Below are positions 23,038-39,754 of a stretch of DNA of 64,000 nucleotides, in pieces. How positions within the stretch are numbered: the first letter of the stretch is position 1; each line of letters begins with the position of its first letter. The notes under the pieces are model-generated. The model saw only the letters and a program-made list of their open reading frames with translations, searched no databases and was not told the DNA's origin. The DNA lies in contig CALWAL010000007.1 in NCBI GenBank assembly GCA_944373145.1, positions 26,005 through 90,004 on the forward strand. The letters are read 5' to 3'. Position numbers and translations under genes: made by a program. This DNA is from an uncultured Bacilli bacterium. Lineage in GTDB: Bacteria > Bacillota_I > Bacilli_A > RF39 > UBA660.

Positions 23038-25671
23038 ATGAAATTTGTATACTTATTCAAAGAAGGTAATGCAGATATGAGAAACCTTCTAGGTGGTAAG
23101 GGTGCTAATTTAGCGGAAATGACTAATTTAGGATTACCAATTCCACAAGGTTTTACTGTTACGACAGAAGCTTGTACTGATTACTATAAAAATGATAAAA
23201 CAATTTCTAGTGAAATTGAAGAACAAATTTATACTGCTCTTCATGAATTAGAAAAAATGCAAGGCAAGACCTTTGGAGATGTTAATGATCCACTATTAGT
23301 ATCTGTAAGAAGCGGTGCACGTGCATCAATGCCAGGAATGATGGATACAATCTTAAATTTAGGTTTAAATGATGAAGCAGTAGAAGGATTTGCAGCAAAA
23401 ACTGGTAACCCACGTTTTGCATATGATTCTTATCGCCGTTTTATTCAAATGTATTCTGATGTAGTTATGGAAGTAAATAAATCATTCTTCGAAAAAATTA
23501 TTGATGAGTTAAAAGAAGAAAAAGGCATTAAGTATGATACTGAAATGACTGTTGAAGATTTACAAGAATTAGTAAAAAGATTTAAAAAGGTTTATAGTGA
23601 CCATATGAATGGTGCAGAGTTCCCACAAGATCCAAAAGAGCAATTAATGGGAGCTGTTAAAGCTGTATTTAGATCTTGGGATAATCCACGTGCTATTGTA
23701 TATCGCCGTATGAACGATATTCCAGGTGACTGGGGAACAGCTGTAAATGTTCAAGCAATGGTATTTGGTAATATGGGAGATACATCTGGTACAGGTGTAG
23801 CATTTACAAGAAATCCATCTACCGGTGAAAAAGGTATTTATGGAGAATATTTAATTAATGCTCAAGGCGAAGATGTTGTTGCTGGTGTTAGAACTCCTCA
23901 ACCAATTACTAAATTAGCTGAAGATATGCCTGAAGTTTATGAAGAATTTATGGCTATTGCTCATAAACTAGAAAACCATTATCGTGATATGCAAGATATG
24001 GAATTTACTATTCAAGAAGGAAAATTGTATTTCTTACAAACTCGTAATGGTAAAAGAACCGCACATGCAGCTATTCAAATTGCTTGCGATTTAGTTGATG
24101 AAGGTATGATTACGAAAGAAGAAGCAATTTTAAGAATTGAGGCTAAATCATTAGATCAATTATTGCATCCAACTTTTGATACTGAAAGTTTAAAAAATGG
24201 CGAAGTTATTGGTTCTGCTTTACCAGCATCTCCAGGTGCTGCTGCTGGTTATGTAGTATTTACTGCTGAAGAAGCTAAAGTTTTAGGTAAAGGCGGAAAA
24301 GGTGACCGTGTTATTTTAGTTCGTTTAGAAACTACACCAGAAGATATTGAAGGTATGGTTGCCGCTCAAGGTATTTTAACAGTTCGTGGAGGTATGACAT
24401 CACATGCTGCAGTTGTTGCTCGTGGTATGGGTACTTGTTGTGTATCAGGTTGTGGTGAAATTGTTATTAATGAAGAAGCTAAAGAATTTACTTTAGGCGG
24501 ATATACTTTCCATGAAGGTGATTATATTTCATTAGATGGATCTACAGGTAAGATTTATAAAGGAGATATTGAAACTAAAGAGGCAAGTGTTAGTGGCAAT
24601 TTTGGACGCATTATGGCATGGGCAGATGAAGTTAGAACTTTAAAAGTTCGTACAAATGCCGATAATCCACGTGACACTAAGAAAGCTTTAGAATTAGGGG
24701 CTGAGGGCATTGGTTTATGTCGTACAGAGCACATGTTCTTCGATGAAGTTAGAATTCCAAAAATCAGAAAAATGATTTTATCCGAAACTGTTGAAGCACG
24801 TGAAGCTGCTTTAAATGAATTAATTCCATTCCAAAAAGGCGATTTCAAAGAAATGTACAAGGCTTTAAATGGTCTACCAATGACTGTACGTTATTTAGAT
24901 CCACCACTACATGAATTTTTACCAACAGCTGAAGCCGATATTATTGCTCTTGCTAATGAAATGGGTGTTACGGTTGAACATTTAAAGAATAAATGTAATG
25001 ATTTACATGAATTTAACCCAATGATGGGACACAGAGGTTGCCGTTTAGCTGTAACTTATCCTGAGATTGCTAAAATGCAAACTAGAGCTTTAATGGAAGC
25101 TGCAATTGAAGTAAGTGAAGAAGAAAATATAACTATAGTTCCTGAAATTATGATTCCTTTAGTTGGCGAGGTTAAAGAATTAAAATTTGTAAAAAACATT
25201 GTAGTTGAAACTGCTGAATTAGTTAAGAAAGAGAAAAATTCAAATATTGAATACCATATTGGTACAATGATTGAAATTCCAAGGGCTGCTTTAACTGCCG
25301 ATAAGATTGCTGAAGAGGCTGAGTTCTTCTCATTTGGTACAAATGACTTAACACAAATGACATTTGGATTCTCAAGAGATGATGCTGGTAAGTTCTTAGA
25401 TGCATATTATCAAAATAAAATTTATGAATCAGATCCATTTGCTAAATTAGATCAAACAGGTGTTGGTCAATTAGTTAAAATGGCTGTTGAAAAGGGACGT
25501 GCAACTAGACCAAATATTAAATTAGGTATTTGTGGTGAACATGGAGGAGAACCAAGTAGTGTTGAATTCTGCCACAATCTAGGATTAACTTATGTTTCTT
25601 GTAGTCCATTTAGAGTACCAATTGCACGTTTAGCTGCTGCACAAGCTGTAATCAAAAATGGGAGGAACTAG
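23038..25671 (+). CDS. ppdK: Pyruvate, phosphate dikinase, with the C-terminal VIKNGRN supplied by the integrated element
   Basis: GGKGANLAEM, LVSVRSGA, GGMTSHAAVVARG (phospho-His), GIGLCRTEHMF and GICGEHGG. Confidence 0.97.
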   Translation: MKFVYLFKEGNADMRNLLGGKGANLAEMTNLGLPIPQGFTVTTEACTDYYKNDKTISSEIEEQIYTALHELEKMQGKTFGDVNDPLLVSVRSGARASMPGMMDTILNLGLNDEAVEGFAAKTGNPRFAYDSYRRFIQMYSDVVMEVNKSFFEKIIDELKEEKGIKYDTEMTVEDLQELVKRFKKVYSDHMNGAEFPQDPKEQLMGAVKAVFRSWDNPRAIVYRRMNDIPGDWGTAVNVQAMVFGNMGDTSGTGVAFTRNPSTGEKGIYGEYLINAQGEDVVAGVRTPQPITKLAEDMPEVYEEFMAIAHKLENHYRDMQDMEFTIQEGKLYFLQTRNGKRTAHAAIQIACDLVDEGMITKEEAILRIEAKSLDQLLHPTFDTESLKNGEVIGSALPASPGAAAGYVVFTAEEAKVLGKGGKGDRVILVRLETTPEDIEGMVAAQGILTVRGGMTSHAAVVARGMGTCCVSGCGEIVINEEAKEFTLGGYTFHEGDYISLDGSTGKIYKGDIETKEASVSGNFGRIMAWADEVRTLKVRTNADNPRDTKKALELGAEGIGLCRTEHMFFDEVRIPKIRKMILSETVEAREAALNELIPFQKGDFKEMYKALNGLPMTVRYLDPPLHEFLPTAEADIIALANEMGVTVEHLKNKCNDLHEFNPMMGHRGCRLAVTYPEIAKMQTRALMEAAIEVSEEENITIVPEIMIPLVGEVKELKFVKNIVVETAELVKKEKNSNIEYHIGTMIEIPRAALTADKIAEEAEFFSFGTNDLTQMTFGFSRDDAGKFLDAYYQNKIYESDPFAKLDQTGVGQLVKMAVEKGRATRPNIKLGICGEHGGEPSSVEFCHNLGLTYVSCSPFRVPIARLAAAQAVIKNGRN
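25641..25648 (+). other. attL core (ACAAGCTG) inside the ppdK 3' end
   Basis: Identical 8-mer at 39182-39189, extending to ACAAGCTGnnATCAAA at both sites. Confidence 0.8.
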
Positions 25672-25740
25672 TAATAGTCGATAATTCCTTGATTTTACAG
25701 GGTTTTATCAAGTTACTTTTTAATCCAAATTAGATAATTT

Positions 25741-25792
25741 AAGACTAAATCTAAATATATCGTCGCATATATTTACGGATTTAGTCTTTTTT
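25741..25792 (+). terminator. Element-supplied terminator for ppdK
   Basis: AAGACTAAATC-TAAATATA...TATATTTA-cg-GATTTAGTCTT followed by TTTT. Confidence 0.7.
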
Positions 25793-25831
25793 CGTGGAAT
25801 TCTGCGATGAAGAAATGGAGGTAATTACTGG

Positions 25832-26305
25832 GTGAAATTGATGTATTCTAGGCCAATATTAAGGGATTTATCGCAGGGCGCACGTATAGCTTTTGTAAGG
25901 CAGTTTAGGGCGAAGACACAGGATGAAATAGCTGGTTTGTTAGGTGCAACTGGCGAATGCAGAAGAAGGACTATGACAAGATATGAAAAGGGGGATAGAA
26001 ATCCTACCACAGCAAGAGCCAAGCTTATTGCTGAATTATTAAATGTTAATTATCATGCCATTAAGCAATATGATTACAAAGAACCATTGGATTTTATCTA
26101 TACTTTGTTATGGATGGAGGAGTTACTGCCTAATTATCATTTTGATGTAGATGATGTATTTATTACTGATGTGGATTTCCTTAATACTATTAATGCCTTT
26201 CTGAAAGAATGGGAGATTATGAAGAGAAAGAGAAAGAATAGGGAGATTAAGTATTCAACTTACATTGAGTGGAAGCTATCATATTCTTTCGAGGACAGAA
26301 AATGA
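25832..26305 (+). CDS. XRE-family HTH transcriptional regulator
   Basis: IAFVRQFRAKTQDEIAGLLG...MTRYEKGDRNP. ATGA overlap with the parB-like gene. Confidence 0.8.
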   Translation: MKLMYSRPILRDLSQGARIAFVRQFRAKTQDEIAGLLGATGECRRRTMTRYEKGDRNPTTARAKLIAELLNVNYHAIKQYDYKEPLDFIYTLLWMEELLPNYHFDVDDVFITDVDFLNTINAFLKEWEIMKRKRKNREIKYSTYIEWKLSYSFEDRK

Positions 26306-27141
26306 ATGGTACTAAAGTTATTAAGATAGTGGATATAGAACCGTTTAAGGATCATCCATTTATAGTTGAAGTTGATGACTCGTTGAAAGAATTGGCACAG
26401 AGTATTATGGAGAATGGTTTATTAAATCCTATTATTGTAAGAGAGAAAGGTAGTAAGTATGAGATGGTTTCTGGTCATAGAAGATTAAAAGCATTAGAGA
26501 TGAATGGTGCTGATGAAGTAGACGCATTTGTTAAAGCTTTATCCGATGATGAAGCTACTATATTTATGGTTGACTCTAATCTTCAAAGAGAGAAGATACT
26601 TCCTAGTGAAAGGGCATTTGCATATAAGATGAAGATGGATGCTTTAAAGCACCAAGGCAAAGCTTTGTCTCCTAAGGGAACAAAATCACATTCGGTCGAT
26701 GAGATAGCAGATACAAAGACTCAGGTCTTTCGTTATATAAGACTTACTTACTTGATTCCGGAACTGTTAAAGATTGTTGATGATACTGCTAGGACTAACG
26801 ATAAGCACAATATAACAATGGGTATTAGACCTGCTGTAGAATTGTCTTACTTGAGTAAGGATGAGCAAAAGTTGGTGTATTCAGAGATGATTTATGATGA
26901 TTTAAGTCCTTCACATGCACAAGCAATCCGAATAAGGAAGTTGAGTGAGAAGAAGAAACTAGATGCAGACAAGCTAGAGAAGATATTATTGGAGAAGAAG
27001 GGAAACCAACATGAGCAGATATCTTTTAATAAGGAGAATATAGAGAGTGTTTTGCCTTATGATCTGCTTAAGAGAGATAAGCGTTATATTGAAGAATATA
27101 TTATTGAAGCTATTAAGGCATATAAGAAGGGTAATAGATAG
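26302..27141 (+). CDS. ParB/RepB/Spo0J-family protein
   Basis: PFKDHPF, LAQSIMENGLLNPIIVR, YEMVSGHRR (ParB box) and NLQRE.ILPSERAFAY. Confidence 0.9.
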   Translation: MNGTKVIKIVDIEPFKDHPFIVEVDDSLKELAQSIMENGLLNPIIVREKGSKYEMVSGHRRLKALEMNGADEVDAFVKALSDDEATIFMVDSNLQREKILPSERAFAYKMKMDALKHQGKALSPKGTKSHSVDEIADTKTQVFRYIRLTYLIPELLKIVDDTARTNDKHNITMGIRPAVELSYLSKDEQKLVYSEMIYDDLSPSHAQAIRIRKLSEKKKLDADKLEKILLEKKGNQHEQISFNKENIESVLPYDLLKRDKRYIEEYIIEAIKAYKKGNR

Positions 27142-27149
27142 ACAATGTA

Positions 27150-27177
27150 AAAGGAAAGAGAGCTTTCTCTTTCCTTT
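27150..27177. terminator. Bidirectional terminator between parB and the convergent MTase gene
   Basis: AAAGGAAAGAGA-gctt-TCTCTTTCCTTT. Confidence 0.8.
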
Positions 27178-29407
27178 AGTTTTCTTCATCTTCTTCAACT
27201 GTTTCCATATCGTTAAATAGTTTCTTTGTATTTGTGTGATACCTATATTGGTATACTTCTAGTTCTCTTTTAAGAGCTAATTCAAGTTCTGTATATTTCG
27301 CTTCCATTAGTGTTAGCAATAGACAAATATCTGCTTGAGCACCTAGTGGAATAACCGGAATTGTTAATTGTCTAAAGTCTTCAAGTGTAATATAGTTAGT
27401 AGGTGAAGAAGTGTTGTTATAGTATCTTTTGATATGTTTATTGATTTTTTCTACAAAGTAGTCTGATTCTAATACATATCTTAGATATGCGGGTGATACT
27501 TCGTCTTCTATATTTTTAAATGGTCTTAATCGAAATACACTATCCGAGAATATAAAGTTAGGTTTTTGTACTATAGCTGCCTTAGTACCTTTTGAGTAAA
27601 TAGCGAATAATACATCATCCTTTTTCAACTTTCCTTTACTAATGAACTCATCTAAGTCTTCTTTTCTTATTCTTTCTGTATGAATAGTTTTGTTTTCTTT
27701 GATATACATTAGCGAACTGTCTTCCATAACAGCACCATTTTGTATTTCCTTTGTTGTAATATAACGATATGGGAAATTATCGTTGGTATCTATTTTCATG
27801 TCTTTTATTTTAGAACCAATAGTTATATCGGCAACATTAACTAGTGGAATCATTTTAATTTGATTGCTTTGTTTTAGTTGTTCTAAAGTATTGACTATAC
27901 ATTTGTTAACCCTTTTAATTTGTGTATTATACTTTAAACGTGATTTGTAATTAGCTTCTTCTTCATTCTCGTAAATGAAATCAGATAAGCATACATCTTC
28001 AATAGTTGTAAATGTGTGTTCTTTTTTATAATTAATGTAGTCACAAATATTTAATGAATATTTGTGATTTGCTATTTCTTCTGGAGTTGCTAAGTACGAT
28101 AGGTTGTCTATGCTCTTTCTACCTAATATAAGTTCTATGATGTTATCTATATTTTCATCACTAAAAGTTACTTGATTACTATTCTTAGTGCATATGTTAC
28201 CTGCATCAACAAATAATATATTGTTGTCTGTTTTGTTTTTTCGAATCAGAAACAGACATGTACCGGTATCAGTTCTTAGGAACATCTTTCTAGGTAGTAG
28301 TATTATTGTATCTATTTGATTGCTATCAACTAAATGTTTTTTTACTGCGGTTTCTTCAGGATTTGTTCTGGATAACATGTTTGGTGTGTCAATTGCCAAT
28401 GCTAATCCATTTTTATTTAGTGTGTATATGATGTGGTATATGAATGCCCAATCAGCTAACTCTTTATTAGGAAGAGGTTTGTCATTGAATCTCTCGTCGT
28501 CTTCTCGCAAAGCTGATTTATTCCAAGGTATTCCAAATGGTGGGTTAGCAAATATCAAATCGTACTTTTCTTTTTCTTCTTTATCATAAGTTAGCAATGT
28601 ATCACATTGAGAAATTTTAAAGTCCCTTACATTATGTATTATCATATTCATTCTACACAACATAGCAGGTATTGCATTTAATTCTTTGCCATAGAAAGGT
28701 ATAGTATTGTTAAATCTTGCATATTCGGTTAATAATGAACCACTTCCACAAGTAGGATCGTAGATGTTATTAGGATCAGTGATATATTGGTCTGAAATCT
28801 TTTTTAATAGTTTTACTATTGATGGTTGAGTATAGAATATGCCATTTTTAAGACTCATGGTATTGTTTGTATCTTTATTGTTTAGTAAGAATTCAAAGAT
28901 ATTACCAAATAAGTCATAATCAGATTTGTTAATGTCATAGTCAACATCTGATATAGCTTTTAATATGGTTGAATATATATTACTCCTTATATTTTGACTA
29001 GTTCCAATACCTTCTGCTTCAGTATCTATGTTTCTAAAGATTTCACATATCTCATATTTAGAAGACTGCTTGATATTCTTGAATATTGAGTTTAATGTTG
29101 AATCTAAACGACTACTATTCAATTCTTTTGCTACAATATTTTGGAATAAGTCTTCTGGGTATATGAAGAAATCTATATCACTTTGTACTTGAGATTTATA
29201 TGCTTCTGCCTCATTGTTATTTAGTTCAATATAATTTACATTGAAGCTAGTTTGAATATGCTTGATTATGCTTTCGGAAAGAAAGCGGTAGAATAAGATT
29301 AAGTATATGTATTTTTCATAACTAGTTATATCCTGACCTTTGTTATATCCTGTCAAAGCTTTTTTTAAGTTTTTTGTGATTGTTCCAACACTTTTCATTC
29401 TTCCCAT
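27176..29407 (-). CDS. Type I-like N6-adenine DNA methyltransferase (HsdM) fused to a single HsdS-like target recognition domain
   Basis: HsdM N-domain, FYTQP, DPTCGSGSLL (motif I) and ANPPFG (motif IV). The C-terminus has a TRD pattern (RYITTKEI, LKKDDVLF, YLRYVLES, FRQLTIPVIPLGAQ) plus a long helix. Confidence 0.85.
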   Translation of the reverse strand: MGRMKSVGTITKNLKKALTGYNKGQDITSYEKYIYLILFYRFLSESIIKHIQTSFNVNYIELNNNEAEAYKSQVQSDIDFFIYPEDLFQNIVAKELNSSRLDSTLNSIFKNIKQSSKYEICEIFRNIDTEAEGIGTSQNIRSNIYSTILKAISDVDYDINKSDYDLFGNIFEFLLNNKDTNNTMSLKNGIFYTQPSIVKLLKKISDQYITDPNNIYDPTCGSGSLLTEYARFNNTIPFYGKELNAIPAMLCRMNMIIHNVRDFKISQCDTLLTYDKEEKEKYDLIFANPPFGIPWNKSALREDDERFNDKPLPNKELADWAFIYHIIYTLNKNGLALAIDTPNMLSRTNPEETAVKKHLVDSNQIDTIILLPRKMFLRTDTGTCLFLIRKNKTDNNILFVDAGNICTKNSNQVTFSDENIDNIIELILGRKSIDNLSYLATPEEIANHKYSLNICDYINYKKEHTFTTIEDVCLSDFIYENEEEANYKSRLKYNTQIKRVNKCIVNTLEQLKQSNQIKMIPLVNVADITIGSKIKDMKIDTNDNFPYRYITTKEIQNGAVMEDSSLMYIKENKTIHTERIRKEDLDEFISKGKLKKDDVLFAIYSKGTKAAIVQKPNFIFSDSVFRLRPFKNIEDEVSPAYLRYVLESDYFVEKINKHIKRYYNNTSSPTNYITLEDFRQLTIPVIPLGAQADICLLLTLMEAKYTELELALKRELEVYQYRYHTNTKKLFNDMETVEEDEEN

Positions 29408-29539
29408 TATAACACCTCCATTTAATCAGTAAATATTATACCACTTTTTAACCGATTTTAGAATGTAACTACAATAATCAATGTTATTAGTTTAAATATC
29501 CCAATCTATATATCTGTCTTTTTGATTAGTCAAAATATA

Positions 29540-29558
29540 TCCCAAGTAACACTAGGGA
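29540..29558. promoter_or_regulatory. Operator-like palindrome, copy 1
   Basis: TCCCAAGTaacACTAGGGA, 17/19 identical to 36924-36942. Confidence 0.6.
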
Positions 29559-29662
29559 AGTTTTTGAAGTGAATTATGATGGTTGAATGTGCTCAGAAAT
29601 GTTTTAGTTTTTATAATAATTAATACCACTTTTTGTATATTTTAGAGTAAATTGGTTACTAA

Positions 29663-29844
29663 ATTTCGTACAATACTATGACAATTGTTAGATTACCTTT
29701 CGAGTTTATTATGGTGTTTTTTACTTTTTTGATAGTTTAGTGAAAAATGTCTTTTAGATTTCGTATAGTAATGTGACAGTTGATGGATTGTCTGGTTAGT
29801 TCTTCACCTTCACAACTTTTAAGATAATCCATCAATAATTGTCA
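29663..29844. repeat. Imperfect 32-bp direct repeat plus long inverted repeat
   Basis: 29663-29694 and 29758-29789 match at 25/32. TGACAGTTGATGGATTGTC (29774-29792) is inverted, with a small insertion, at 29823-29844. Confidence 0.55.
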
Positions 29845-30290
29845 GTTTAATTTTATATTACTATGATGGTTGATGAATCATCGGATTTACAGCGACGTTT
29901 TTACAACTTAGTGCGAGATTGCCAACTCGTTAAACGCAATAACAATACTAAAGATACTAATACTAATAATCAAAACATTAATTTTAATAAGAATATTAAC
30001 AAGAGAAAGATAAAAGATAATATTCAGTGATCTAGACGGTATTTTGTAATTTAGAGAATGGGGATATTTAAACATTAAGAACACAGGAACCCCAATTATA
30101 TTTATAGTATCGACGTACAATTTCACTAGAAGATGTATATGCAGATATAAGATGATTATTTTATTTGATTAAGCTGGTCAAGCGGAGATTTTGAAGTGAC
30201 TATGGTTATTTATACTAGTTTTGCTTTAAAGTCTCTCAAACCGGTTTAAAGTTGCTAAATATTTTGAATTTAGAGAGGATTTGAGAATGT

Positions 30291-30680
30291 ATGAAAGCAC
30301 ATTGGATTGTTAAACTTAAGAATCCATTTAATGGAATGAAGCTGGTTGCTTATGAAGATGGACGTGTCTATGTTGGTGGAACTGGACCTTTAATTGGTAA
30401 GCTTAAATCAACTTCTATGAAGAAAATTAGATATTACATCAACGAGTATGCCCATTATATCAAGATAGTTGGATATGAAGTTCAGGATATATATGGATTT
30501 ATAGCCAAGTTCTGGGATAATAGCAATGTTAAGCGTGATGACCTGACGGTTAAAGGTTGGCCTTACGAGCGTGAATTCCTAGAGATTATATTTAACAAGA
30601 ATTCATATCGTAAGTTTTTGATTGGTGATGGTGAGTTTGTTTCTATTATGCATGATTATTTATTAACTTCGTTAGATTAA
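30291..30680 (+). CDS. Hypothetical protein
   Basis: 129-aa ORF with a GAGG RBS upstream. Confidence 0.65.
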   Translation: MKAHWIVKLKNPFNGMKLVAYEDGRVYVGGTGPLIGKLKSTSMKKIRYYINEYAHYIKIVGYEVQDIYGFIAKFWDNSNVKRDDLTVKGWPYEREFLEIIFNKNSYRKFLIGDGEFVSIMHDYLLTSLD

Positions 30681-30695
30681 GCATGCAGAGGAATG

Positions 30696-30900
30696 AAACT
30701 GGTTTTGTTTTTATCAGCAACTGCTGCAGGTAAAACTGGTTCTGGGGATCGTTGCATGAAGCGTTGCTTGATTCGGTGGATCCGGCGTAGCTTGTAGGAG
30801 AGCAAGTTACCGGTTTTACCTAATCCTATTTGTAAGAACATTACCTAGTGGTATTTATACTTTTATATGGATTTTTAGTGCAACGAAGTGTGGGTTGCCT
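30696..30900. other. GC-enriched structured non-coding segment of unknown function
   Basis: 13-bp stem AGGTAAAACTGGT/ACCGGTTTTACCT (30728-30821) encloses sub-hairpins. A GCAAC...GTTGC hairpin lies near 30880-30898. Confidence 0.45.
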
Positions 30901-31012
30901 TTTCTGCTGTCTTCACAATGTGCTGGAGTAAGTAATAATATTTATATTCTGTTCTATTTCCTATTGATTAAGTTTTACTTTTAAGGTTAAATACAAAATC
31001 AAAGGTGAATAG

Positions 31013-31360
31013 ATGATGAAAGATACAAAGATAGATAGATATATTGATAAATCACTTCTTCCAAAACATCACTATATAACACTAGAACTAGTTAGAAGGA
31101 AGTTTATCAGCAGTGAATCGGATTTTGATTTATACCTGTATGATGCTCTATTTGAAGAATTATTGTTGAGATATGACTTTAAGACAGTTATAGTTGCAAC
31201 AAATTACGTTGCTACGAGAGTTAAACAGCAGCAATTTTGCTCGGAAGATGGAGCCAAGATCGAGAACTTATATGCCTATTTTAGGTCTTCTATTACATTT
31301 AACCTAAGAAAGATTACTAATCAGATAGATTTTGATTGGTTGAATGATGATTATGATTGA
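31013..31360 (+). CDS. Hypothetical protein, possibly resembling a replication-initiator C-terminal domain
   Basis: 115-aa ORF with AAGGTGA RBS and an IENLYAYFRSSI motif. Confidence 0.6.
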   Translation: MMKDTKIDRYIDKSLLPKHHYITLELVRRKFISSESDFDLYLYDALFEELLLRYDFKTVIVATNYVATRVKQQQFCSEDGAKIENLYAYFRSSITFNLRKITNQIDFDWLNDDYD

Positions 31361-31593
31361 TTTCCTTATAGTTTTTCTACCTTTTTTAGGGTTTTTGCAG
31401 CTTTTTTATATATTTTAGTAGAACATCCTATTGTAGAAATGTCCTGCTATTATGAGAAAAATATTACGATTTTGAAACGTCTTGATTTTTGCTTCTTTTC
31501 TCTGTTAGTGGGTATTTCTATTACTTTGTTCGAAAGATTCTTCAAATGGGCAGAGAATGCCGAATCAGGTGGTTATTTGAGAGGAGTTGTACT

Positions 31594-32025
31594 ATGAGAA
31601 CTTGGCTGGTTAAGCTTGAAAGATACGATAAGAACTGGATTACCTTGTATGATGATGCAAATGTATTAACCTATGGAAGAAAGAAACCTTATGTTTTGAA
31701 GAAATCAGCGATGGAAATGGTACAAGAATTGATTAGTGAGTATTCTGCTGATGATTCAACTGCTGATTTTGATCAAGATTGCATTATCAAATGTAATATC
31801 AATCCGAAACTAGTGAGCCATAATCGTTTGTTTTTTAATCAGATGGTGGCAATATTATTTGATTTTAGAAATATTAAGCATCCAGATAGTCGTCTAGGTC
31901 CTATATTAGAGGAAATAGAACGTTTAAGAGCAGATGGAACACTACAAGAGATGATAGACACAGATGGTCAAGATGCTGTTATAGAACAATTAATTATGAA
32001 TTTTAGTGATAGAGATAGCGATTAA
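31594..32025 (+). CDS. Hypothetical protein
   Basis: GAGGAG RBS precedes ATG 31594. A terminator follows. Confidence 0.65.
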   Translation: MRTWLVKLERYDKNWITLYDDANVLTYGRKKPYVLKKSAMEMVQELISEYSADDSTADFDQDCIIKCNINPKLVSHNRLFFNQMVAILFDFRNIKHPDSRLGPILEEIERLRADGTLQEMIDTDGQDAVIEQLIMNFSDRDSD

Positions 32026-32122
32026 TGAGTGATTGCTCTCTTTTTATTTGGTTTTAGAGATGAATTATATGTTTATTTTATCAACTTTTTATGGTACAAC
32101 ATGGTTAGTATGGAGGTAAAAT

Positions 32123-32443
32123 ATGTTTAGACCTAAGACTGATGATGACATTACTGAAGAAGAATTTGTAACGATATTATCACCTTTCGTTGATAAATGT
32201 CATGAATACATAGAGAAGAAACTTATTCCAGTATATGTTGCTTACTATATAGCAGAAGCATACAATACAAGTTCTTTAGAAGAGGATACTTATGATATTT
32301 TCATAAACTCTGCCTTATGTTCATTTAATATTGAACCTGCTAATTATGAAACTATCAAATCTGATACTACAAAGCTGCTAGAGGATGAATATCACTTAAG
32401 AGTAATAAGCGAAGATCCACTAGATTTTGAAAGAATATTCTGA
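32123..32443 (+). CDS. Hypothetical acidic protein
   Basis: GGAGGT RBS, 106 aa. Confidence 0.65.
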   Translation: MFRPKTDDDITEEEFVTILSPFVDKCHEYIEKKLIPVYVAYYIAEAYNTSSLEEDTYDIFINSALCSFNIEPANYETIKSDTTKLLEDEYHLRVISEDPLDFERIF

Positions 32444-32567
32444 TCCTATGTTATTTGACAATAGATGCTTTAGTTGGAATTATAGTTTAAGAATTATTGT
32501 TTATTTCATTTAAATAGCTGTATAATTATTTAAAGCACGTTATTATACAAAGCGGATGGTGATGTAA

Positions 32568-32795
32568 TTGAATAAGCTTATTCTTGAGTTTCCTACATTC
32601 GAAGAGATAAAAGAAGTTTTATCTAAGGAACTACCTGATATCATTGAGATAACATTTAAGAGTCAAGAAAACAATGCTAAAGAGTTTGAAATAATATATT
32701 ATTTGGTTAATTGTACTGATTACTTTTTTGAATCGTTAACGCCAACTGATGATTCACGTACAAACTTTATAGCACACTTTAAAAGGAAGAGTTAA
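32568..32795 (+). CDS. Hypothetical protein
   Basis: 75-aa ORF with TTG start and GGTGA RBS. Its stop lies in a bidirectional terminator (32781-32808). Confidence 0.55.
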   Translation: MNKLILEFPTFEEIKEVLSKELPDIIEITFKSQENNAKEFEIIYYLVNCTDYFFESLTPTDDSRTNFIAHFKRKS

Positions 32796-32824
32796 TTCTC
32801 TTCCTTTTCTATGATTAATAGACT

Positions 32825-33097
32825 TTAATCGATTTTTTTTGTTACGTTACTAGATTCTGGTTCTTCAAATAATTTTGATAACGGTATTCCAAGAACTTTA
32901 GCAAACTTATATGTAGTACCGATACTTGCTGTTTGAAATACTTTTTCAGATTCAAGATTTTTTATGAAACTCAAAGCATACAAACTTTTTTCAGCGAGTT
33001 GTTCTTGTGTCATACCTGCCTCTTTTCTATACTTTTTTAGATTTTTAGCTAATATTGTGTAAGCATAGTTTTCATCAATTTGGTTTTTATTATTCAT
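32825..33097 (-). CDS. XRE-family HTH regulator, divergent from the zinc-ribbon genes
   Basis: LAKNLKKYRKEAGMTQEQLAEKS...FIKNLES...AKVLGIPLSKLF. Confidence 0.88.
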   Translation of the reverse strand: MNNKNQIDENYAYTILAKNLKKYRKEAGMTQEQLAEKSLYALSFIKNLESEKVFQTASIGTTYKFAKVLGIPLSKLFEEPESSNVTKKID

Positions 33098-33277
33098 TTG
33101 TCCCACCCATAACAATTATCTCAATAATAAGTTAAATATTTAGTATGTTGTTCGTAGACTTTTGTGGTATAATAATTATATAGTAAGTTGTTTTCATGGA
33201 AGTAGTTTAATGATTTTGTTTACCGAAATATTTGAAGATAGTAGCTTTTATGAAGAAAGTTAGTGATGGTGATTGAT

Positions 33278-33814
33278 ATGGCATTAATTAAATGTGTTGA
33301 GTGCGGAAAAGAGATTAGTGATACAACCGATATATGCGTTCATTGTGGTGCACCTACTTCTATTTCAACTAAGCGTAACGATAATGTTGTTACTAAATCT
33401 AAGAGGAACAATAAACGTAACATCGTCATTTTTATTGTTGTATGTTTATTAGTTTTTTGTATTGTAATTATTGTTGTACCTTTTTTTATAAACCTTAGAA
33501 ATAAGGATATATTAGCTTCTGATACCTTAGATGCTGAATATTCAGCACCTGAGCTAGAATATATTTATGGGGATGCGATGAGAGTTATATTTGAATTTAA
33601 AGATGATGGAACAGCAATTTATCAACGTTGCAATGCTAAAACTGATGCTTGTGCAGATCCTCATTCATATACTTATAAGAAATACGGATTAGATGTAGAT
33701 ATTTATGGCAGTGGTAATAACCTTTTATATGATTGTTCTTTAAAAGACTCTGGCAAGTTTCTAAATTGCTACGATATGAGTGGTCAATATCAAGATTATG
33801 CAAAGACTAATTAA
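33278..33814 (+). CDS. Zinc-ribbon header protein 1 (single TM plus extracellular domain)
   Basis: MALIKCVECGKEISDTTDICVHCGAP, followed by a TM helix IVIFIVVCLLVFCIVIIVVPFFI. Confidence 0.8.
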   Translation: MALIKCVECGKEISDTTDICVHCGAPTSISTKRNDNVVTKSKRNNKRNIVIFIVVCLLVFCIVIIVVPFFINLRNKDILASDTLDAEYSAPELEYIYGDAMRVIFEFKDDGTAIYQRCNAKTDACADPHSYTYKKYGLDVDIYGSGNNLLYDCSLKDSGKFLNCYDMSGQYQDYAKTN

Positions 33815-33841
33815 TTTAAGAGTAAGAAAGGAAGGAAAATT

Positions 33842-34192
33842 ATGGCACTAATTAAATGTAAAGAATGTGGAAAAGAGATTAGTGATACTGCTAATGAATG
33901 TGTTCATTGTGGATGTCCTTTAGGTAAAGTGAAGTTCTATACTTCTAATAATTGGACAGGTATAGCGAGTAGATATATTATCTCTAATAATAATGGACAA
34001 GTTCTTGCTAAACTAAAAGGTGGCGAAGAATTTGAAATAAATATTGATGAAGATACCAAATTTTATGTTCGATGCAATACTACTCTTAGCAGAAAAAAAC
34101 ATGAAGTTGTAGCATATGCATGTAAGATTAATAAGTTTCTAGTCGAAATAACTTTTATGGGAGCAAGTACTCGTGTATCAGAGATTAATTAA
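33842..34192 (+). CDS. Zinc-ribbon header protein 2 (soluble beta-rich tail)
   Basis: MALIKCKECGKEISDTANECVHCGCP. No TM. Confidence 0.8.
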   Translation: MALIKCKECGKEISDTANECVHCGCPLGKVKFYTSNNWTGIASRYIISNNNGQVLAKLKGGEEFEINIDEDTKFYVRCNTTLSRKKHEVVAYACKINKFLVEITFMGASTRVSEIN

Positions 34193-34212
34193 TATTTTAA
34201 AGGAGGAAAATT

Positions 34213-34665
34213 ATGGCATTAATTAAATGTAAGAGTTGTGGTAAAGAAATTAGCGATAAGTCTACTAAATGTGTTCATTGTGGTTGTGATACTGATTATT
34301 CAATTACATATTTTTGTTCTGAGTGTGGTAAAGAGTTTGATAACATTAAATGTATGAATTGTGGTTATTCTCCTAATAATAAGAAAGATACTACTAATCA
34401 ATCAGCGAATGTTGGTTTTAATTTTAAACCATTATTAATAAGTTTAGCAGTAGGAATTATTACTTTTATTATCATGTCCTATGTTGAAGGGATTTTTATT
34501 GTGGACATATCTGTGTCAATAATACTATTTTTAACTTGTTTGGGAGCTCTAACTGGTTCTTTGGATGATTTTGTTGATACAATGGACGATTTTCATGCAA
34601 GTACAGATAAAGATCCTTATAAAAGAGCTTTGTACAAGGAAATTAAGAAGAATAACAAGAAGTAA
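34213..34665 (+). CDS. Zinc-ribbon header protein 3 (double zinc ribbon plus two TMs)
   Basis: MALIKCKSCGKEISDKSTKCVHCGCD, second ribbon CSECG...CMNCG, then two hydrophobic segments. Confidence 0.8.
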   Translation: MALIKCKSCGKEISDKSTKCVHCGCDTDYSITYFCSECGKEFDNIKCMNCGYSPNNKKDTTNQSANVGFNFKPLLISLAVGIITFIIMSYVEGIFIVDISVSIILFLTCLGALTGSLDDFVDTMDDFHASTDKDPYKRALYKEIKKNNKK

Positions 34666-34721
34666 TTGCTATAAAAGACTATTTACTATGGTACAATATA
34701 CTTAACTGAGGAGGTTCAATT

Positions 34722-35420
34722 ATGACTAAAAAAATTGGAATTAAGAAAATTGAAACTAGTATTCCTTGTGATGTTTTTGTTTCGAGTATAGATGGAATCG
34801 TTGGTGCATCAAAAGGTGTTAATCTAGATGTTTACTTCACTTCTAAGAAAATTTATGAATTAGAAGATACCATGTTTGTTGTACTTGACATGTATGATGG
34901 TACCGGTGAAATGAAAGCTTTATTAGTGGGTAATAGAGATAAAGAATTTACTTCACTAGTTGATGGTATTAAGATTGATGCCGATGTAAGATATAGAATA
35001 AGTGGTAATGTTTCTATACCTTCTGACACTGATGATGTGGAGTTACCTTTTATGAATGATATTAAGAATAATAAGTTGTTTTGTATTTATGCTTTTCAAA
35101 GAAATCCTAAATCAACGTATTGTGAACTAAAACATCTTGCTAGGACAGAGATTGAGAAAGTTCGTGATGGTATAAGTACTGTTCAACAAAGTATTATTGA
35201 TAGTCTTAAGTATGATAAAAGTATTTCTATGGAAGAACTTCATATCATGTATTGTTTTGATGGTGATGGTGGTTTTGATCTAGACATACATCAATTTTAT
35301 GATTTATATGTAAGCCCATTGATAAAGAGTAAAGAAATTAAGGTGTGCAATTTAAAACAATGTTCTAAAGAGAAACCTTTACCAATGCCAGAATTTGAGC
35401 TTATGTATAATTGTAATTAA
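34722..35420 (+). CDS. Hypothetical protein with possible OB-fold
   Basis: GAGGAGG RBS. VLDMYDGTGEMKALL...YRISGNV resembles OB-fold nucleic-acid-binding domains. Confidence 0.6.
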   Translation: MTKKIGIKKIETSIPCDVFVSSIDGIVGASKGVNLDVYFTSKKIYELEDTMFVVLDMYDGTGEMKALLVGNRDKEFTSLVDGIKIDADVRYRISGNVSIPSDTDDVELPFMNDIKNNKLFCIYAFQRNPKSTYCELKHLARTEIEKVRDGISTVQQSIIDSLKYDKSISMEELHIMYCFDGDGGFDLDIHQFYDLYVSPLIKSKEIKVCNLKQCSKEKPLPMPEFELMYNCN

Positions 35421-35486
35421 TAGACAGAGATTAATTCTCTGTTTTTTCTAAAGACGCTGTAATTTTGTTTAATGTATGTTTTAATG

Positions 35487-35678
35487 TAGAAGATGCTACA
35501 TATGCTGTAGTACCTGAAGACAACATCAAGAGGTAGCTCCTCTTGTGAAGATACATGATGTGGTTTGATTCCGGTTAAATCATGGAAGGGTTATAAGTGA
35601 ACGATTGTCCCTAGTGCAGTAAACAAGCGCCGCCATTTAGAACTTTAGCAAGATAGACTTTGTAGTCTGTCTTTTTAT
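35487..35678 (+). ncRNA. Candidate ~190-nt structured non-coding RNA, family unrecognised
   Basis: Possible extended -10 (TGtTTTAAT) upstream, four successive hairpins and an intrinsic terminator AAGATAGACT-ttgt-AGTCTGTCTT-TTT. No ORF. Confidence 0.4.
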
Positions 35679-35831
35679 TTGGCCTAATATGGGTGTAAAC
35701 GAAATCATTTGATTTCTTTTATATTAGAAACTTGTCCAAAATGCGTTGCTTTTTATCTGAATTTAAGTGATTTATATAAACGAAATGTGAAAGATGTTTT
35801 CTTTTACACTTTAGAAAAGAGGTAATTTAAT

Positions 35832-36434
35832 ATGGAAAGCAAAGTATGGGGTTACTGCCGCTGTTCCACCAACGATTCAAAACAAGATGTCAAGTATCAG
35901 ATTGATGCATTAATTGATAAAGGTGTAGATATATCTAATATAAGGTATGAGTATATTTCTGGTAGGAAGGAACATAGACCTGGACTTGATGCACTGTTAG
36001 AAGAAATGAATGAGGGTGATACTTTAATAGTTACTGATATTACTCGTTTGTGTAGGAATACAAAGGTTTTGTGTGAAATAATTGATTTGATTATTGCAAA
36101 GAAATTTAGGCTTATTGTTGGAAGTATTGATATAGATTGTAGGAATGGTAGTTTAGATCCTATGATTGAAGGTATGCTAAAAATTAACGCGGTTTTTGGG
36201 GAGATGGAAGCAAAACTGAAAATACATCAAATCCATTTAGGATTAGCTACAGCTGTTAAGGCTGGTAAGAAGTTAGGACGTCCTAAGTCAACTTATGATG
36301 ATATTCCAAAGGTGTTTATGCAGTATTATCCTAAGTATAAGAATGGAACTCTAAACAAAATGGCTTTTGCTAGAGTTACTCAATTATCGTATCCAACTAT
36401 TTATAAGTACCTAGATATTGTTGAGAATGCTTAG
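35832..36434 (+). CDS. Small serine recombinase (resolvase/invertase family)
   Basis: GYCRCST catalytic motif, EYISG...RPGL, GDTLIVTDITRLCR, GKKLGRP and C-terminal HTH. Confidence 0.93.
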   Translation: MESKVWGYCRCSTNDSKQDVKYQIDALIDKGVDISNIRYEYISGRKEHRPGLDALLEEMNEGDTLIVTDITRLCRNTKVLCEIIDLIIAKKFRLIVGSIDIDCRNGSLDPMIEGMLKINAVFGEMEAKLKIHQIHLGLATAVKAGKKLGRPKSTYDDIPKVFMQYYPKYKNGTLNKMAFARVTQLSYPTIYKYLDIVENA

Positions 36435-36569
36435 TAGTAGTTATTATTAAGAGAACTTTTTGCTAAAGTTTTCTTTTTTTTTGATTAATCTGAGTTTTAT
36501 TCAAAATATTTCGTATAACAGTATAGTTGCTTTTTCCATAATGGGCAACTAGAAAGTAAGGTGATTTGT

Positions 36570-36893
36570 ATGAATTATGGTTATTATGTAAAAGGAAGAA
36601 GTGAGATGGAAAATTGGGATACTTATTATGATGTGTATTGTTATGTCCCAGATGACGAGAAAATCTTTTGCGACGAAATAGGCAGTAGTAAAAATTTGGA
36701 TTATCTTCTTGATATTATGGGAGAAGGTGATAGCCTTCATCTCACTAATCTCTTTGATTTAGGAAGAAGTTGGGATAAGGTTATTAAGGCTTTGTACATT
36801 CTTAATGATAATAATATTAGATTGTTTGTTATGAACGATGAGGTTAATCTTGATGATGTAATATATGTAATTACAGGTGCCGAAGTAGCTTAA
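36570..36893 (+). CDS. Degenerate resolvase-like protein lacking the catalytic YxRxS motif and the HTH
   Basis: IFCDE...LDYLLDIMGEGDSLHLTNLFDLGRS...IRLFV matches the resolvase core. The N-terminus reads MNYGYYVKGRS. AAGGTGA RBS precedes ATG 36570. Confidence 0.65.
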   Translation: MNYGYYVKGRSEMENWDTYYDVYCYVPDDEKIFCDEIGSSKNLDYLLDIMGEGDSLHLTNLFDLGRSWDKVIKALYILNDNNIRLFVMNDEVNLDDVIYVITGAEVA

Positions 36894-36923
36894 TAAGCTA
36901 CTTTTTTAATGTTTGATTTTTAT

Positions 36924-36942
36924 TCCCAAGTAGGACTAGGGA
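36924..36942. promoter_or_regulatory. Operator-like palindrome, copy 2
   Basis: TCCCAAGTaggACTAGGGA, upstream of the microprotein-integrase genes. Confidence 0.6.
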
Positions 36943-37145
36943 GAATTTTCACACTATTGTCTGGTAAGGATGTACGTATGTCTTTTAGTGAGAATATTTA
37001 TGTATTAATGCTTGATAATTCGCTGTTTTTATAAGGTTTTTAGCACTTTTTTCAACTTTTTGCATTTAAAATTGCGAAACGCCTGACACAAATCGTAACA
37101 ACTAACAAGCTCGTTTGAGAGTTTTGGAAAGTGTGGTGGATTATT

Positions 37146-37307
37146 GTGTCTAATAGGATTGATTTCAAACTTAGTGATTCAAATAAGAAAATACTTAATA
37201 TGAATCTTGCTGTTGAGATTATTAGAAACTTATTATTTGTAAATGAAGTTATAACTTCAGAAGAGTTTCAAAATGTTATTAAGTGTGCTAATCGTAGTGT
37301 CAAATGA
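37146..37307 (+). CDS. 53-aa SHOCT-like microprotein upstream of the integrase (absent from the ORF track)
   Basis: GTG start behind GGTGGA. Sequence is MSNRIDFKLSDSNKKILNMNLAVEIIRNLLFVNEVITSEEFQNVIKCANRSVK*. Confidence 0.55.
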   Translation: MSNRIDFKLSDSNKKILNMNLAVEIIRNLLFVNEVITSEEFQNVIKCANRSVK

Positions 37308-37351
37308 TTGTATAAAAGATATTAAGATTAAAATAGAGGTGAGAAATTATT

Positions 37352-39079
37352 ATGGATTCAATATGTTTTTATGCTCGTGTTTCCACGAAGCATGAATCTC
37401 AATTATATTCTTTTGAGAACCAAGTTCAATTATATGATATGTTTTTAGTAGAGCATTCTCATGAGAATTGGGAAGTATATGATAGATATTTTGACAAAGG
37501 TATAACAGGTACTTCGATGAAAAAGCGTAAGGGTTTTTTAAGGATGATAGATGATGCTAAACGTGGTTGCTTTAATACTATTATAACCCGTGAGGCTTCT
37601 CGTTTTGCAAGAAATGTTCAAGATACTCTTAATGTTTCAATTGATCTTGTTGAGAGAGGTATTAGACTTATTTTTATTGAAGATAAGCTAGATACAAAAC
37701 AAGATGAAGATTGGAAAAGTAGATTAACACAACTTGCTATTGATGCTGAAAAGCATTCAAAAACACAATCAGTCAACGCTAAAGCAGGTCAAAAAATATC
37801 TAGAGCGAAACATGTATTATATGGTAATGGGAATGTATTAGGTTATGATAGAGTAGGAAAGGAATATGTCATTAATGCTGAGCAAGCTAAGGTTGTTAGA
37901 TTGATTTTTGATATGTGTTTACGTGGAAGCGGAAGTAGAGATATTCAATACGAACTAGAGAAGAAAAACTATCTTACATCAACCGGTTTAGAGAACTGGA
38001 ACGTTGCAACCATCACAAGAATACTTCGTAACTCGATATATTGTGGTACTGTTGTTTACAATAAAAGTTATAGTAGTGATTATTTACATCAAAAGCGTAT
38101 TCTTAATAAAGGAGAAGTAGAGCAACTCGTTGTAGAAGATAGAGTTCCGGCAATTGTTTCTAAAGAAGATTTTGCTAGAGCACAGGAGATACTTGATAGC
38201 CATAAAACTAATAATAAAGGTGTAGTGACTACGGTTGGGAAACCACCGACTACTATCTTTGGGAAGAAACTCAAATGTAGTTGTGGATATAGTATGCAGA
38301 AAAAGAAATATCATACATATAAGGATGGACATACTGCCTATTGTTATCAATGCTATGACCAAGTAAATAGAGGCTCTTTTACCTCTAGAAAGAAACACGG
38401 TGTAAGTGTTGAAGGTGTTTGTGATACAAAAATAATTCCAGATTGGAAATTGAAATTAGCATCCTATACTATATTTGATATGTTAATTGATAGAAGAGAG
38501 GATATTATCGATATTATAGATAAACTACTAGAATCAGCGGTTGATGATGATAAAAATCTTCTATGTAGTGAGCAGGAGTTTTATGAAAAAGAAATAGAAG
38601 CCTTGAAGAGAAGGATATCTAAGTTAATGGATTTATATACTAATGAATATATAACTCTGAATGAGTTTAACGAAAAGAAGAAAGAAATAGATACCACAAT
38701 GAATGAATATAATGCTAAACTAAACAAACTTATAACTAATAAGTGTATAACTCCAAAAACAATTAGTGAACGTTTAGCTGAATGTAAAGATATAATTACT
38801 AATAGTTTTATGAATTATAAAGATGGAACTACATATGAGTTGTTAGTAGATTCTTTTGTTGATAGAATTATTGTAAGTAATGATAAGCTTGAATGGCATA
38901 TGAGATTAACAAAAGAAATTAAAATGCCGCTTGATGATGTTATAAGAGAGAAAGAAGTGTTTATAGGTACATTATCACTTACTAAAGATGACGCTACATA
39001 TTATTCTAAGTATTGCAATGATTTATCTAGAGTATGCTTTGATAAAGCATTGCTGGTTGATATATATCTTATGTTCTGA
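37352..39079 (+). CDS. Large serine recombinase (integrase)
   Basis: FYARVST...Q, YFDKGITGT, REASRFAR, LGYDR, recombinase domain (ILRNSIYCG), zinc ribbon (KCSCG...YCYQC) and coiled coil. Confidence 0.95.
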   Translation: MDSICFYARVSTKHESQLYSFENQVQLYDMFLVEHSHENWEVYDRYFDKGITGTSMKKRKGFLRMIDDAKRGCFNTIITREASRFARNVQDTLNVSIDLVERGIRLIFIEDKLDTKQDEDWKSRLTQLAIDAEKHSKTQSVNAKAGQKISRAKHVLYGNGNVLGYDRVGKEYVINAEQAKVVRLIFDMCLRGSGSRDIQYELEKKNYLTSTGLENWNVATITRILRNSIYCGTVVYNKSYSSDYLHQKRILNKGEVEQLVVEDRVPAIVSKEDFARAQEILDSHKTNNKGVVTTVGKPPTTIFGKKLKCSCGYSMQKKKYHTYKDGHTAYCYQCYDQVNRGSFTSRKKHGVSVEGVCDTKIIPDWKLKLASYTIFDMLIDRREDIIDIIDKLLESAVDDDKNLLCSEQEFYEKEIEALKRRISKLMDLYTNEYITLNEFNEKKKEIDTTMNEYNAKLNKLITNKCITPKTISERLAECKDIITNSFMNYKDGTTYELLVDSFVDRIIVSNDKLEWHMRLTKEIKMPLDDVIREKEVFIGTLSLTKDDATYYSKYCNDLSRVCFDKALLVDIYLMF

Positions 39080-39181
39080 CAACTAAGTAATACACTTAGT
39101 TGTTTTTATGTTATAATAATGTAGTAATATTTAGATGTAGTCTGATATGTGATATATCTTCCTCTTATATCCTACAACCGT

Positions 39182-39189
39182 ACAAGCTG
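39182..39189 (+). other. attR core of the large element, which is also the left core of the relic island
   Basis: ACAAGCTG, followed in frame by AIKEKNNK* (stop 39213-39215) and a terminator at 39230-39262. Confidence 0.8.
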
Positions 39190-39373
39190 CTATCAAAGAA
39201 AAAAACAATAAATAACACATAATAAATATAGACTGAGATTAAAATTAATCTTAGTCTTTTTTGATATGTGATAGTAAAAGATAACAATATATATAATGTT
39301 AAAATATCTTTTTATAGTATAATAGAATTAATAGATAAATAGTAATTTATTGTTATGATTGGAGGAAAAGAAA

Positions 39374-39727
39374 ATGGGAAAAGTAATTGTATTATTTGAG
39401 GTTACAATAAAAGATGGAAAGAAAGATGATTATTTAAAGAGAGCTGAAATCTTAAAAGCACATTTAAAGAATATGAAAGGTTTTATATCTGCTGAAAGAT
39501 TTCAATCTTTAGCAAGCGAAAAGAAAGTATTAAGTATGACAGTATGGGAAAATGAGGAAAGCGTTCAAATTTGGAGAAATTTATCTGAACATAGAGAAAG
39601 CCAATTAGCAGGTAGAATGGAAGATTTTGAAGATTACAAAATAACAGTAGTTACACCAATTCGTGAATATGGAATGAATGATAGAACTAATGCACCTAAA
39701 GATTCAAATGAATATTTTAACGTATAA
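39374..39727 (+). CDS. Antibiotic biosynthesis monooxygenase (ABM)-family protein
   Basis: GFISAERF, SMTVWENEES...WRNLSEHRESQ..GR. GGAGG RBS. Confidence 0.85.
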   Translation: MGKVIVLFEVTIKDGKKDDYLKRAEILKAHLKNMKGFISAERFQSLASEKKVLSMTVWENEESVQIWRNLSEHRESQLAGRMEDFEDYKITVVTPIREYGMNDRTNAPKDSNEYFNV

Positions 39728-39754
39728 TAATTATGCCAGAAAGAGTTATAATTT

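Follow-up and report, generated by a model that had tools for sequence, protein, structure and literature searches.

What kind of element occupies the last codons of ppdK in an uncultured gut bacterium, and by what route could it have arrived there? The question is raised by a 64,000-nucleotide stretch of DNA (positions 26,005 to 90,004 of contig CALWAL010000007.1, assembly GCA_944373145.1; hereafter the window) that is part of a 241-kb chicken-gut metagenome scaffold from the Bacilli (RF39; UBA660). From the letters alone, an earlier reading (the original prediction) had placed a serine-integrase element in ppdK, with a 50-bp symmetric attP and no transfer genes, and had taken it for an excision-competent satellite or a reduced integrative and conjugative element (ICE). 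The analysis reported here makes it very likely that the window holds a 13,541-bp integrative cassette, not self-transmissible, which was inserted in the 3' end of ppdK by its own large serine recombinase (LSR) of 575 amino acids.

The ppdK insertion and its attachment sites

The sequence ACAAGCTGnnATCAAA is found at two sites alone in the window, 25641 and 39182, as originally noted, and the wider pattern ACAAGCTG..ATCAAA has exactly two matches on both strands of the window, one at 25641 (attL, with TA in the open positions) and one at 39182 (attR, with CT). The unoccupied site was recovered in seven contigs of the same species that lack the element, retrieved by exact look-up of the ABM protein encoded downstream, with ppdK 99.85% identical to that of the window. 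In these contigs a ppdK of 878 amino acids is followed directly by the genes ABM-alkA-ogt-tag, and the sequence at the site (...GCTGCTGCACAAGCTGCTATCAAAGAAAAAAACAATAAATAA) is the left flank joined exactly to the right flank. Because all seven equal this join, the element can be delimited as 25644-39184, the TA at 25649-25650 is derived from the element, and the crossover lies inside ACAAGCTG. The comparison with strains lacking the element, which the original prediction had proposed as a check, bore out an LSR element in the 3' end of ppdK, with presence or absence of the element varying inside the window's species.

The ppdK gene is host-derived up to the CA at 25642-25643, and its last nine codons (AVIKNGRN*) belong to the element. 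The reading frame spans the left core copy and ends AAQAVIKNGRN*, and the right copy goes on in frame as QAAIKEKNNK*; the empty-site contigs have the native end AAIKEKNNK*, so that PpdK counts 877 residues with the element and 878 without it. The bacterial site, attB, lies in the 3' end of ppdK, on the codons for A-A-Q-A-A-I (GCT GCA CAA GCT GCT ATC), and the stop codon is regenerated on insertion.

When positions 39159-39184 were joined to 25644-25667, the predicted attP was reproduced, with the form TTCCTC-N38-GAGGAA and with 13 of 24 arm positions symmetric about the CA of the Gln codon; other centres within 15 bp on either side gave at most 12. Since 1.0% of all window positions reach a symmetry of 13 or more, this feature alone is only moderate evidence. 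A sharper limit came from comparing attL and attR across six host species, which confines the crossover to CAAGC. In the host of L005 and L024, attL reads ...GCTGCT-CAAGC-CGCTATCAAAAATGGG and attR reads ...CCGTA-CAAGC-AACAATTAATAATCGTTAA, with only CAAGC in common, and in the host of L012 the base preceding CAAGC is host-derived and hence excluded; the crossover must therefore be CA, AA, AG or GC. Two further attP sites were available for comparison. The site of L104, a relative in an Oscillospiraceae metagenome-assembled genome (MAG) with an LSR 40% identical, was rebuilt from both ends and scores 14 of 24 at CA and at most 9 at other centres, and the attP of a sister element with an LSR of 573 amino acids (LSR573), found assembled in L122 and L124, is symmetric at 16 of 24 positions at CA. 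As far as such comparisons reach, CA is the best-supported crossover position, being the symmetry centre in three independent attP sites, in keeping with the position first proposed. The TTCCTC motif of the P arm is common to L013 and L035.

The recombinase itself, to judge from its residues, is intact in both its catalytic and its zinc-ribbon parts. The catalytic domain (PF00239, E=1e-20, residues 6-148) carries R9-V10-S11-T12, invariant in ten clade members, and is followed by the Recombinase domain (PF07508, E=9e-24, residues 177-282). Cysteines C309, C311 and C334 of the zinc ribbon are invariant across the clade and C331 is nearly so; the Pfam zinc-ribbon model gave no match to the protein at E<=0.01. 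Relatives in the PDB are 3g13 (aligned over the catalytic domain), SprA (9dxh), TP901-1 and A118, with the match to SprA extending over residues 52-279 (E=5e-11) at remote identity only. Among NCBIfam models the best match was CcrB, at 109 bits against a cut-off of 900, followed by CcrC (74 against 900) and CcrA (35 against 700). A serine catalytic domain is found together with an imperfectly palindromic attP of about 50 bp and an attB that has the same crossover. The order resolvase, recombinase, zinc ribbon and coiled coil (the last putative here) is that of Bxb1, phiC31, TP901-1, A118 and SprA of SPbeta, and the attP of the characterised LSRs is likewise an imperfect palindrome, about 50 bp long, that surrounds a 2-bp crossover. 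They differ from the present case in that identity to them is remote, the window element does not lie in a phage, and its recombination activity is predicted.

Taken together, these features make it very likely that the LSR of the element recombined attP with attB at the 3' end of ppdK, and that strands were exchanged where the ...AAAQAAI... motif has its conserved Gln codon, at the CA. The P' arm encodes the substitute C-terminus, which a hairpin follows, so that PpdK is left intact at 877 instead of 878 residues.

Spread between hosts and a family at the ppdK tail

The element, recognised by an identical ParB protein, was recovered from further hosts. Identity to the window copy is 99.3% in L026 (13.36 kb, human gut), 99.2% in L004, 99.1-99.9% in L024, 99.6% in L027, 98.1-99.97% in L007 and 95.2% in L012, and the LSR differs among copies at one residue (C562R). 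The ppdK genes that carry the element are 70-81% identical pairwise. Because the copies are 95.2-99.97% identical and the host genes only 70-81%, the element moves between species. L125 represents a sixth host species, a further host tail was seen in run X7, and 20 public runs from chicken, sheep, mouse and human gut contain at least half of the sampled LSR-region words; the public runs (24) were available as assembled contigs, which drop rare forms. Since all copies sit at one crossover with one P arm, each of them must have passed through a free attP form, and the case for excision and transfer is on this ground indirect but strong. This is a genuine LSR cassette that is mobile at present, and it would pass between species as a circular attP form with transfer functions provided in trans. 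As a separate observation, an insertion sequence with a 476-aa DDE transposase (DUF772/DDE_Tnp_1_6) lies between the 107-aa and 53-aa open reading frames (ORFs) in L024 (11240-12670) and L025, copies that are otherwise 99% identical to the element.

A query of species-representative genomes with the LSR as a single protein returned no close relative. With an alignment of the LSR and nine relatives, the same kind of search gave 80 loci, 78 of them with enough sequence for inspection. Short ORFs matching QA-x-[IVLM]...stop were counted as tails if they lay at most 400 nt past the LSR stop or overlapped it, and at least 49 of the 78 relatives (37-59% identity) carry such a ppdK-tail remnant beside the LSR gene, compared with 91 of 1573 control windows. 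The tails are preceded by GCA/GCAGCA-CA (e.g., QAAIKAKKN*, QAAIAERK* and QAVVKEN*). Hosts include many uncultured Bacilli and 'Tenericutes' MAGs, Lachnospiraceae, Oscillospiraceae and one Muribaculaceae MAG, with Lachnoanaerobaculum gingivalis, Jutongia huaianensis and Hominifimenecus microfluidus as isolates of the Lachnospiraceae. In L104, ppdK itself stands 7 kb upstream, and L013 combines an LSR 64% identical with the P arm motif of the window and a ppdK tail. The sister LSR573 element (LSR 46% identical) has the order 129, 113 and 145 aa, a helix-turn-helix (HTH) gene on the minus strand, 232 aa, resolvase, small ORF and LSR, and the cargo between these backbone ORFs differs from that of the window element. 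By these sequence comparisons the element belongs to a large family of modular cassettes, a family that is dedicated to the tail of ppdK.

Members of the family are also found stacked on one another. The recombinase-less cassette ABM-alkA-ogt-tag, directly downstream of the element, occurs in every contig that has the empty site and is therefore fixed in the species, and it is probably the remnant of an older insertion. At its far end stands a fossil attR, where AAAAAACACTCCACGAATATTACAGTGCTA resembles the P arms of the family and is followed by a third ppdK-like tail. L036, from another species, has a near-identical arm and tail shortly before pfkB (at 5867) and two further tails, and extra tails are also carried by L104 and L041. 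In L041 (11870-11990) two att-like sites follow the LSR, 55 bp apart, with identical tails (QAVVKSEGK*) and each with its own P-arm-like left side. In L117 (8580-13039) an LSR573 element is followed by a block with a second, different large serine recombinase of 537 aa, the two being stacked.

Junctions between members were found as well. In L009 (2190-2300), L010 and L034 the CA core connects the left end of the element with the P arm of an LSR of 584 aa, whose own attR was seen in L046, and in run X3 a contig ending at window position 25639 joins the left end of the element to a P arm of the 573-aa LSR type. The best reading of these hybrid junctions is that they are either tandem arrays or ends that were exchanged, two forms that assembly alone cannot separate. 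In L009 the reading frame of the 584-aa LSR crosses the junction. L009 and L010 had been considered as a circular form of the window element and were rejected as such, their left arm being that of the other LSR (584 aa, about 40% identical) and the junction being symmetric at 10 of 24 positions; joints called from contigs aligned to 24000-41000 had sides shorter than 30 nt and were judged to be noise. The sister LSR573 attP, TGCCCACCAAATGAGACAGCAACA-CA-AGCTGCTATTAAATTTAGAGGGCA, was assembled between its LSR and the left end with HTH and ParB genes (L122:8319-8650 and L124:7713-8045). The form is either circular or tandem, and two samples contain it.

Genes of the element and its neighbourhood

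All 16 ORFs of the element were covered by profile scans (Pfam, PHROGs, PADLOC and NCBIfam), and the features are collected in Table 1.

Table 1. Features of the ppdK element and its flanks in the window (positions are those of the 64,000-nucleotide stretch)
Feature	Position	Strand	Basis or remark
ppdK, 877 aa	23038..25671	+	Pfam PPDK_N, PEP-utilizers, PEP-utilizers_C
attL core repeat ACAAGCTGTAATCAAA	25641..25656	+	inferred crossover dinucleotide CA at 25642-25643
P' arm of attP (AGCTGTAATCAAAAATGGGAGGAA)	25644..25667	+	also encodes replacement PpdK tail
Hairpin after replacement tail	25741..25788	+	inverted repeat I16; probably the ppdK terminator
HTH (XRE-type) regulator, 157 aa	25832..26305	+	Pfam HTH_19, HTH_3
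ParB/Spo0J-family protein, 279 aa	26302..27141	+	Pfam ParB_N 1.7e-16; TIGR00180 85.7 bits, above cut-off
Orphan type I-like N6-adenine DNA methyltransferase fused to one HsdS-like specificity domain, 743 aa	27176..29407	-	
Five small ORFs, 129, 115, 143, 106 and 75 aa	30291..32795	+	no family
XRE-type HTH repressor candidate	32825..33097	-	Pfam HTH_19 1.3e-10; divergent from cargo genes
Three paralogous zinc-ribbon proteins, 178, 116 and 150 aa	33278..34665	+	Pfam Zn_Ribbon_1; variable cargo
Conserved 232-aa protein, predicted N-terminal OB-fold (nucleic-acid-binding type)	34722..35420	+	
Small serine recombinase (resolvase/invertase type), 200 aa	35832..36434	+	Pfam Resolvase 6e-25
107-aa ORF, weak sub-threshold resolvase N-terminal likeness	36570..36893	+	Pfam Resolvase E=0.016
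53-aa ORF directly upstream of LSR gene	37146..37307	+	
Large serine recombinase, 575 aa	37352..39079	+	Pfam Resolvase, Recombinase
P arm of attP (TTCCTCTTATATCCTACAACCGTA)	39159..39182	+	identical in all copies
attR core repeat ACAAGCTGCTATCAAA	39182..39197	+	crossover CA at 39183-39184
Displaced ppdK tail QAAIKEKNNK*	39183..39215	+	gene end in strains without the element
Recombinase-less cassette ABM-alkA-ogt-tag	39190..41592	+	gene calls, Pfam; bounded by tails 2 and 3
Fossil attR: P-arm-like AAAAAACACTCCACGAATATTACAGTGCTA, then third ppdK-like tail QATVKEKLNK* (41594-41626)	41564..41626	+	

The absence of any recognisable relaxase, type IV secretion system (T4SS) or phage structural gene, as originally reported, was upheld by the scans. 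No relaxase, coupling protein or T4SS was found among the 16 ORFs with Pfam, PHROGs, NCBIfam and PADLOC, and no replication initiator, primase, terminase, capsid or other phage structural or packaging family with PHROGs and the other profiles. Rfam gave no match in the element at E<=0.1, a megablast of phage records showed no similarity to the element, and tblastn of the LSR against phages and plasmids gave at most 37% identity and no close relative in either.

The methyltransferase matches Pfam N6_Mtase (1e-70) and the PADLOC models MTase_I and, on residues 485-716, Specificity_I, with no restriction subunit for it in the element. The five small ORFs had no family match in the Pfam, PHROGs and PADLOC scans; in LSR573, the sister element, ORFs of about 129, 113 and 145 aa follow each other in matching order, a correspondence of ORF length alone. 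The three zinc-ribbon paralogues share an N-terminal header of about 89 nt at 69-82% identity (33264-34287, direct repeat family D1) and have unrelated C-terminal parts, and the sister element has other cargo, of 218 and 442 aa, at this position.

The 232-aa protein has 134 homologues, mostly 80-100% identical and none of them named. In its AlphaFold model residues 30-128 are the only confident part (predicted local distance difference test score, pLDDT, about 80) and form an oligonucleotide/oligosaccharide-binding (OB) fold, for which the top Foldseek matches were the OB domains of PolC, RPA and AsnRS (Asn/Asp-tRNA synthetases). Some homologues are about 304 aa long, with another C-terminal half. 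The small serine recombinase is also present in the L013 and LSR573 elements. The 53-aa ORF matched no known family in PHROGs, NCBIfam and further profile scans. Of 17 relatives checked, 14 (e.g., L035, L036 and L045) have a homologous ORF of 42-62 aa, located 26-60 nt before the start of the LSR gene, with the motif ..LN..I[AI]..[IL][IF][KR]......I[ST]..E[FY]..[LV]....R[ST][VF][KN]. Its product may be a directionality or accessory factor of the recombinase.

Alternative readings, known systems and significance

Several observations weigh against the account of a mobile LSR cassette given above. The circular junction or excision product of the window copy was not found in the probable source run or in three sister runs, whose assembled contigs contain the integrated attR junction only, or nothing. 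The excision competence claimed in the original prediction is upheld indirectly, as far as near-identical copies at one crossover in six host species imply a free attP form, and not by any such junction. The exact cognate attP pattern had no match in IMG/VR viral contigs, nor the P arm pattern in JGI metagenome contigs. Beside the core, the P' arm has three alleles within 6 nt, GCTGTA (window, L012), GCCGCT (L004, L005, L007, L009) and GCTGCA (L125:380-395), a variation far above the 0.1-1% seen across the rest of the element, and this does not fit a simple fixed attP. The directionality factor is so far a candidate, and the five to seven ORFs that have no assignable function could conceal mobilisation or replication functions.

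The same three GCNGNN variants of attL could mimic host variation, as would be expected if the crossover fell in the second identical block, ATCAAA, and the variable letters came from the host. This placement is scarcely credible, given that all seven of the conspecific empty sites read GCTGCT and the window attL reads GCTGTA, that the L005/L024 junctions have CAAGC alone in common, and that symmetry peaks at CA in three attP sites. It is just as improbable that the element is immobile, being what is left of a prophage or ICE that decayed down to its integrase. Such a remnant would account for the lack of transfer genes, and the degenerate resolvase-like ORF of 107 aa hints at some decay, but the complete unit is 98-99.9% identical across hosts whose ppdK genes are 70-81% identical, its presence varies in one species, and the LSR is intact, as is each of the att sites. 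The small size (13.5 kb), the divergent XRE-type repressor and the possession of an integrase would suit a phage satellite, one that is packaged by a helper once it has been induced. This is nevertheless an unlikely reading, as there is no primase or replicase, small terminase subunit, capsid-remodelling gene or other PHROG structural or packaging family, no similarity to phage records, no LSR in the phage collection beyond 37% identity and nothing in IMG/VR. Neither 'satellite' nor 'reduced ICE' is supported as a description, for an intact 13.5-kb unit is found in all hosts, with no packaging, replication or conjugation gene or relic of one.

A further alternative concerns the transfer route alone and is compatible with the cassette described here. 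The element could be a relaxase-less mobilisable island with only an origin of transfer (oriT), like the mobilisable genomic islands (MGI) of Vibrio, which enters as single-stranded DNA via the conjugation pore of another element. Its spread over at least six species would agree with this, as would a cargo of an OB-fold nucleic-acid-binding protein, a ParB-family protein and an orphan methyltransferase, which resembles the leading-region genes of conjugative DNA. On the other side, profile scans, which cannot recognise an oriT, turned up neither a relaxase nor a coupling protein, no oriT was recognised, and the OB-fold model is confident for residues 30-128 only, a generic assignment. The idea is possible, if on the doubtful side. 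For the non-self-transmissible cassette as such, mobilisation or co-transfer with a conjugative element seems somewhat more likely than phage-mediated transfer.

Among known systems, the closest analogue is the staphylococcal cassette chromosome (SCC), which is driven by LSRs, keeps the 3' end of a housekeeping gene functional, lacks transfer genes, stacks, leaves recombinase-less remnants and carries cargo of the restriction-modification type. The element is similar to SCC/SCCmec as an LSR cassette without transfer genes, in the intact 3' end of a housekeeping gene, in tandem stacking with remnants between repeated cores and in cargo with restriction-modification-type genes, and CcrB is the best NCBIfam match of the window LSR. 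The target there is rlmH (orfX), however, and here ppdK; a CcrA/CcrB pair (or CcrC) acts there, and here there is one LSR with a small resolvase, far below the Ccr equivalog cut-offs; and the hosts there are staphylococci, compared with uncultured gut Bacilli here. The element would thus work like an SCC-type cassette without being one. Tandem accretion is also known from Streptococcus thermophilus, in which ICESt1, ICESt3 and the cis-mobilisable elements (CIME) occupy the 3' end of fda. They resemble the present family in entering a central-metabolism gene site-specifically at its 3' end and in accretion at a common att core, but employ tyrosine integrases, and some of them are self-transmissible ICEs.

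The ppdK tail is also a target in the Bacteroidota, where PvCTn and related elements, conjugative transposons of 14-76 kb with a T4SS, integrate in the 3' end of the gene (PMC11005914). When they integrate, a stop codon is formed anew within a few residues; the site is used by several unrelated elements, and their integrase BVU3359 is listed with PF13102, which indicates a tyrosine-type integrase (PMC11005914). The gene and the conserved codons are identical to the target in the window, and in a by-eye comparison the window attB differs at two positions from the 20-nt motif of these elements. A tyrosine-type integrase, a T4SS and Bacteroidota hosts there contrast with a serine recombinase and no T4SS found here. 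Of the new integrase/att pair proposed in the original prediction, the att pair is new in detail, whereas the LSR belongs to a large clade targeting ppdK codons and the site is the published attB of Bacteroidota elements with tyrosine integrases (PMC11005914). A search of the available literature library found no paper linking ppdK with a serine recombinase, and none describing the ppdK-tail LSR clade. In a broader view, to which we give about an even chance, the ppdK tail would be a docking site dedicated to a large clade of LSR cassettes in gut Firmicutes, the clade having as its conserved backbone an OB-fold protein, a small resolvase, the LSR and a partner ORF (about 55 aa, maybe a new family of directionality factors). 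Its members would stack, leave fossil tails and have ends swapped at the CA core, in convergence with the tyrosine-type integrases of the Bacteroidota.

The LSR, attP and attB of the element form a well-defined triple that is a ready candidate for testing as a recombinase tool, the crossover having been narrowed to 5 bp through natural experiments in six hosts. The spread of the element in the absence of recognisable transfer genes raises a testable question on the transfer route, and the ppdK-tail cassettes offer a natural system for the study of core sharing, stacking and module swapping by related LSRs. The last codons of ppdK emerge as a common landing pad for many serine-recombinase cassettes in gut Firmicutes and for transposons with tyrosine-type integrases in the Bacteroidota, and the site is a useful marker of horizontal transfer in gut metagenomes.

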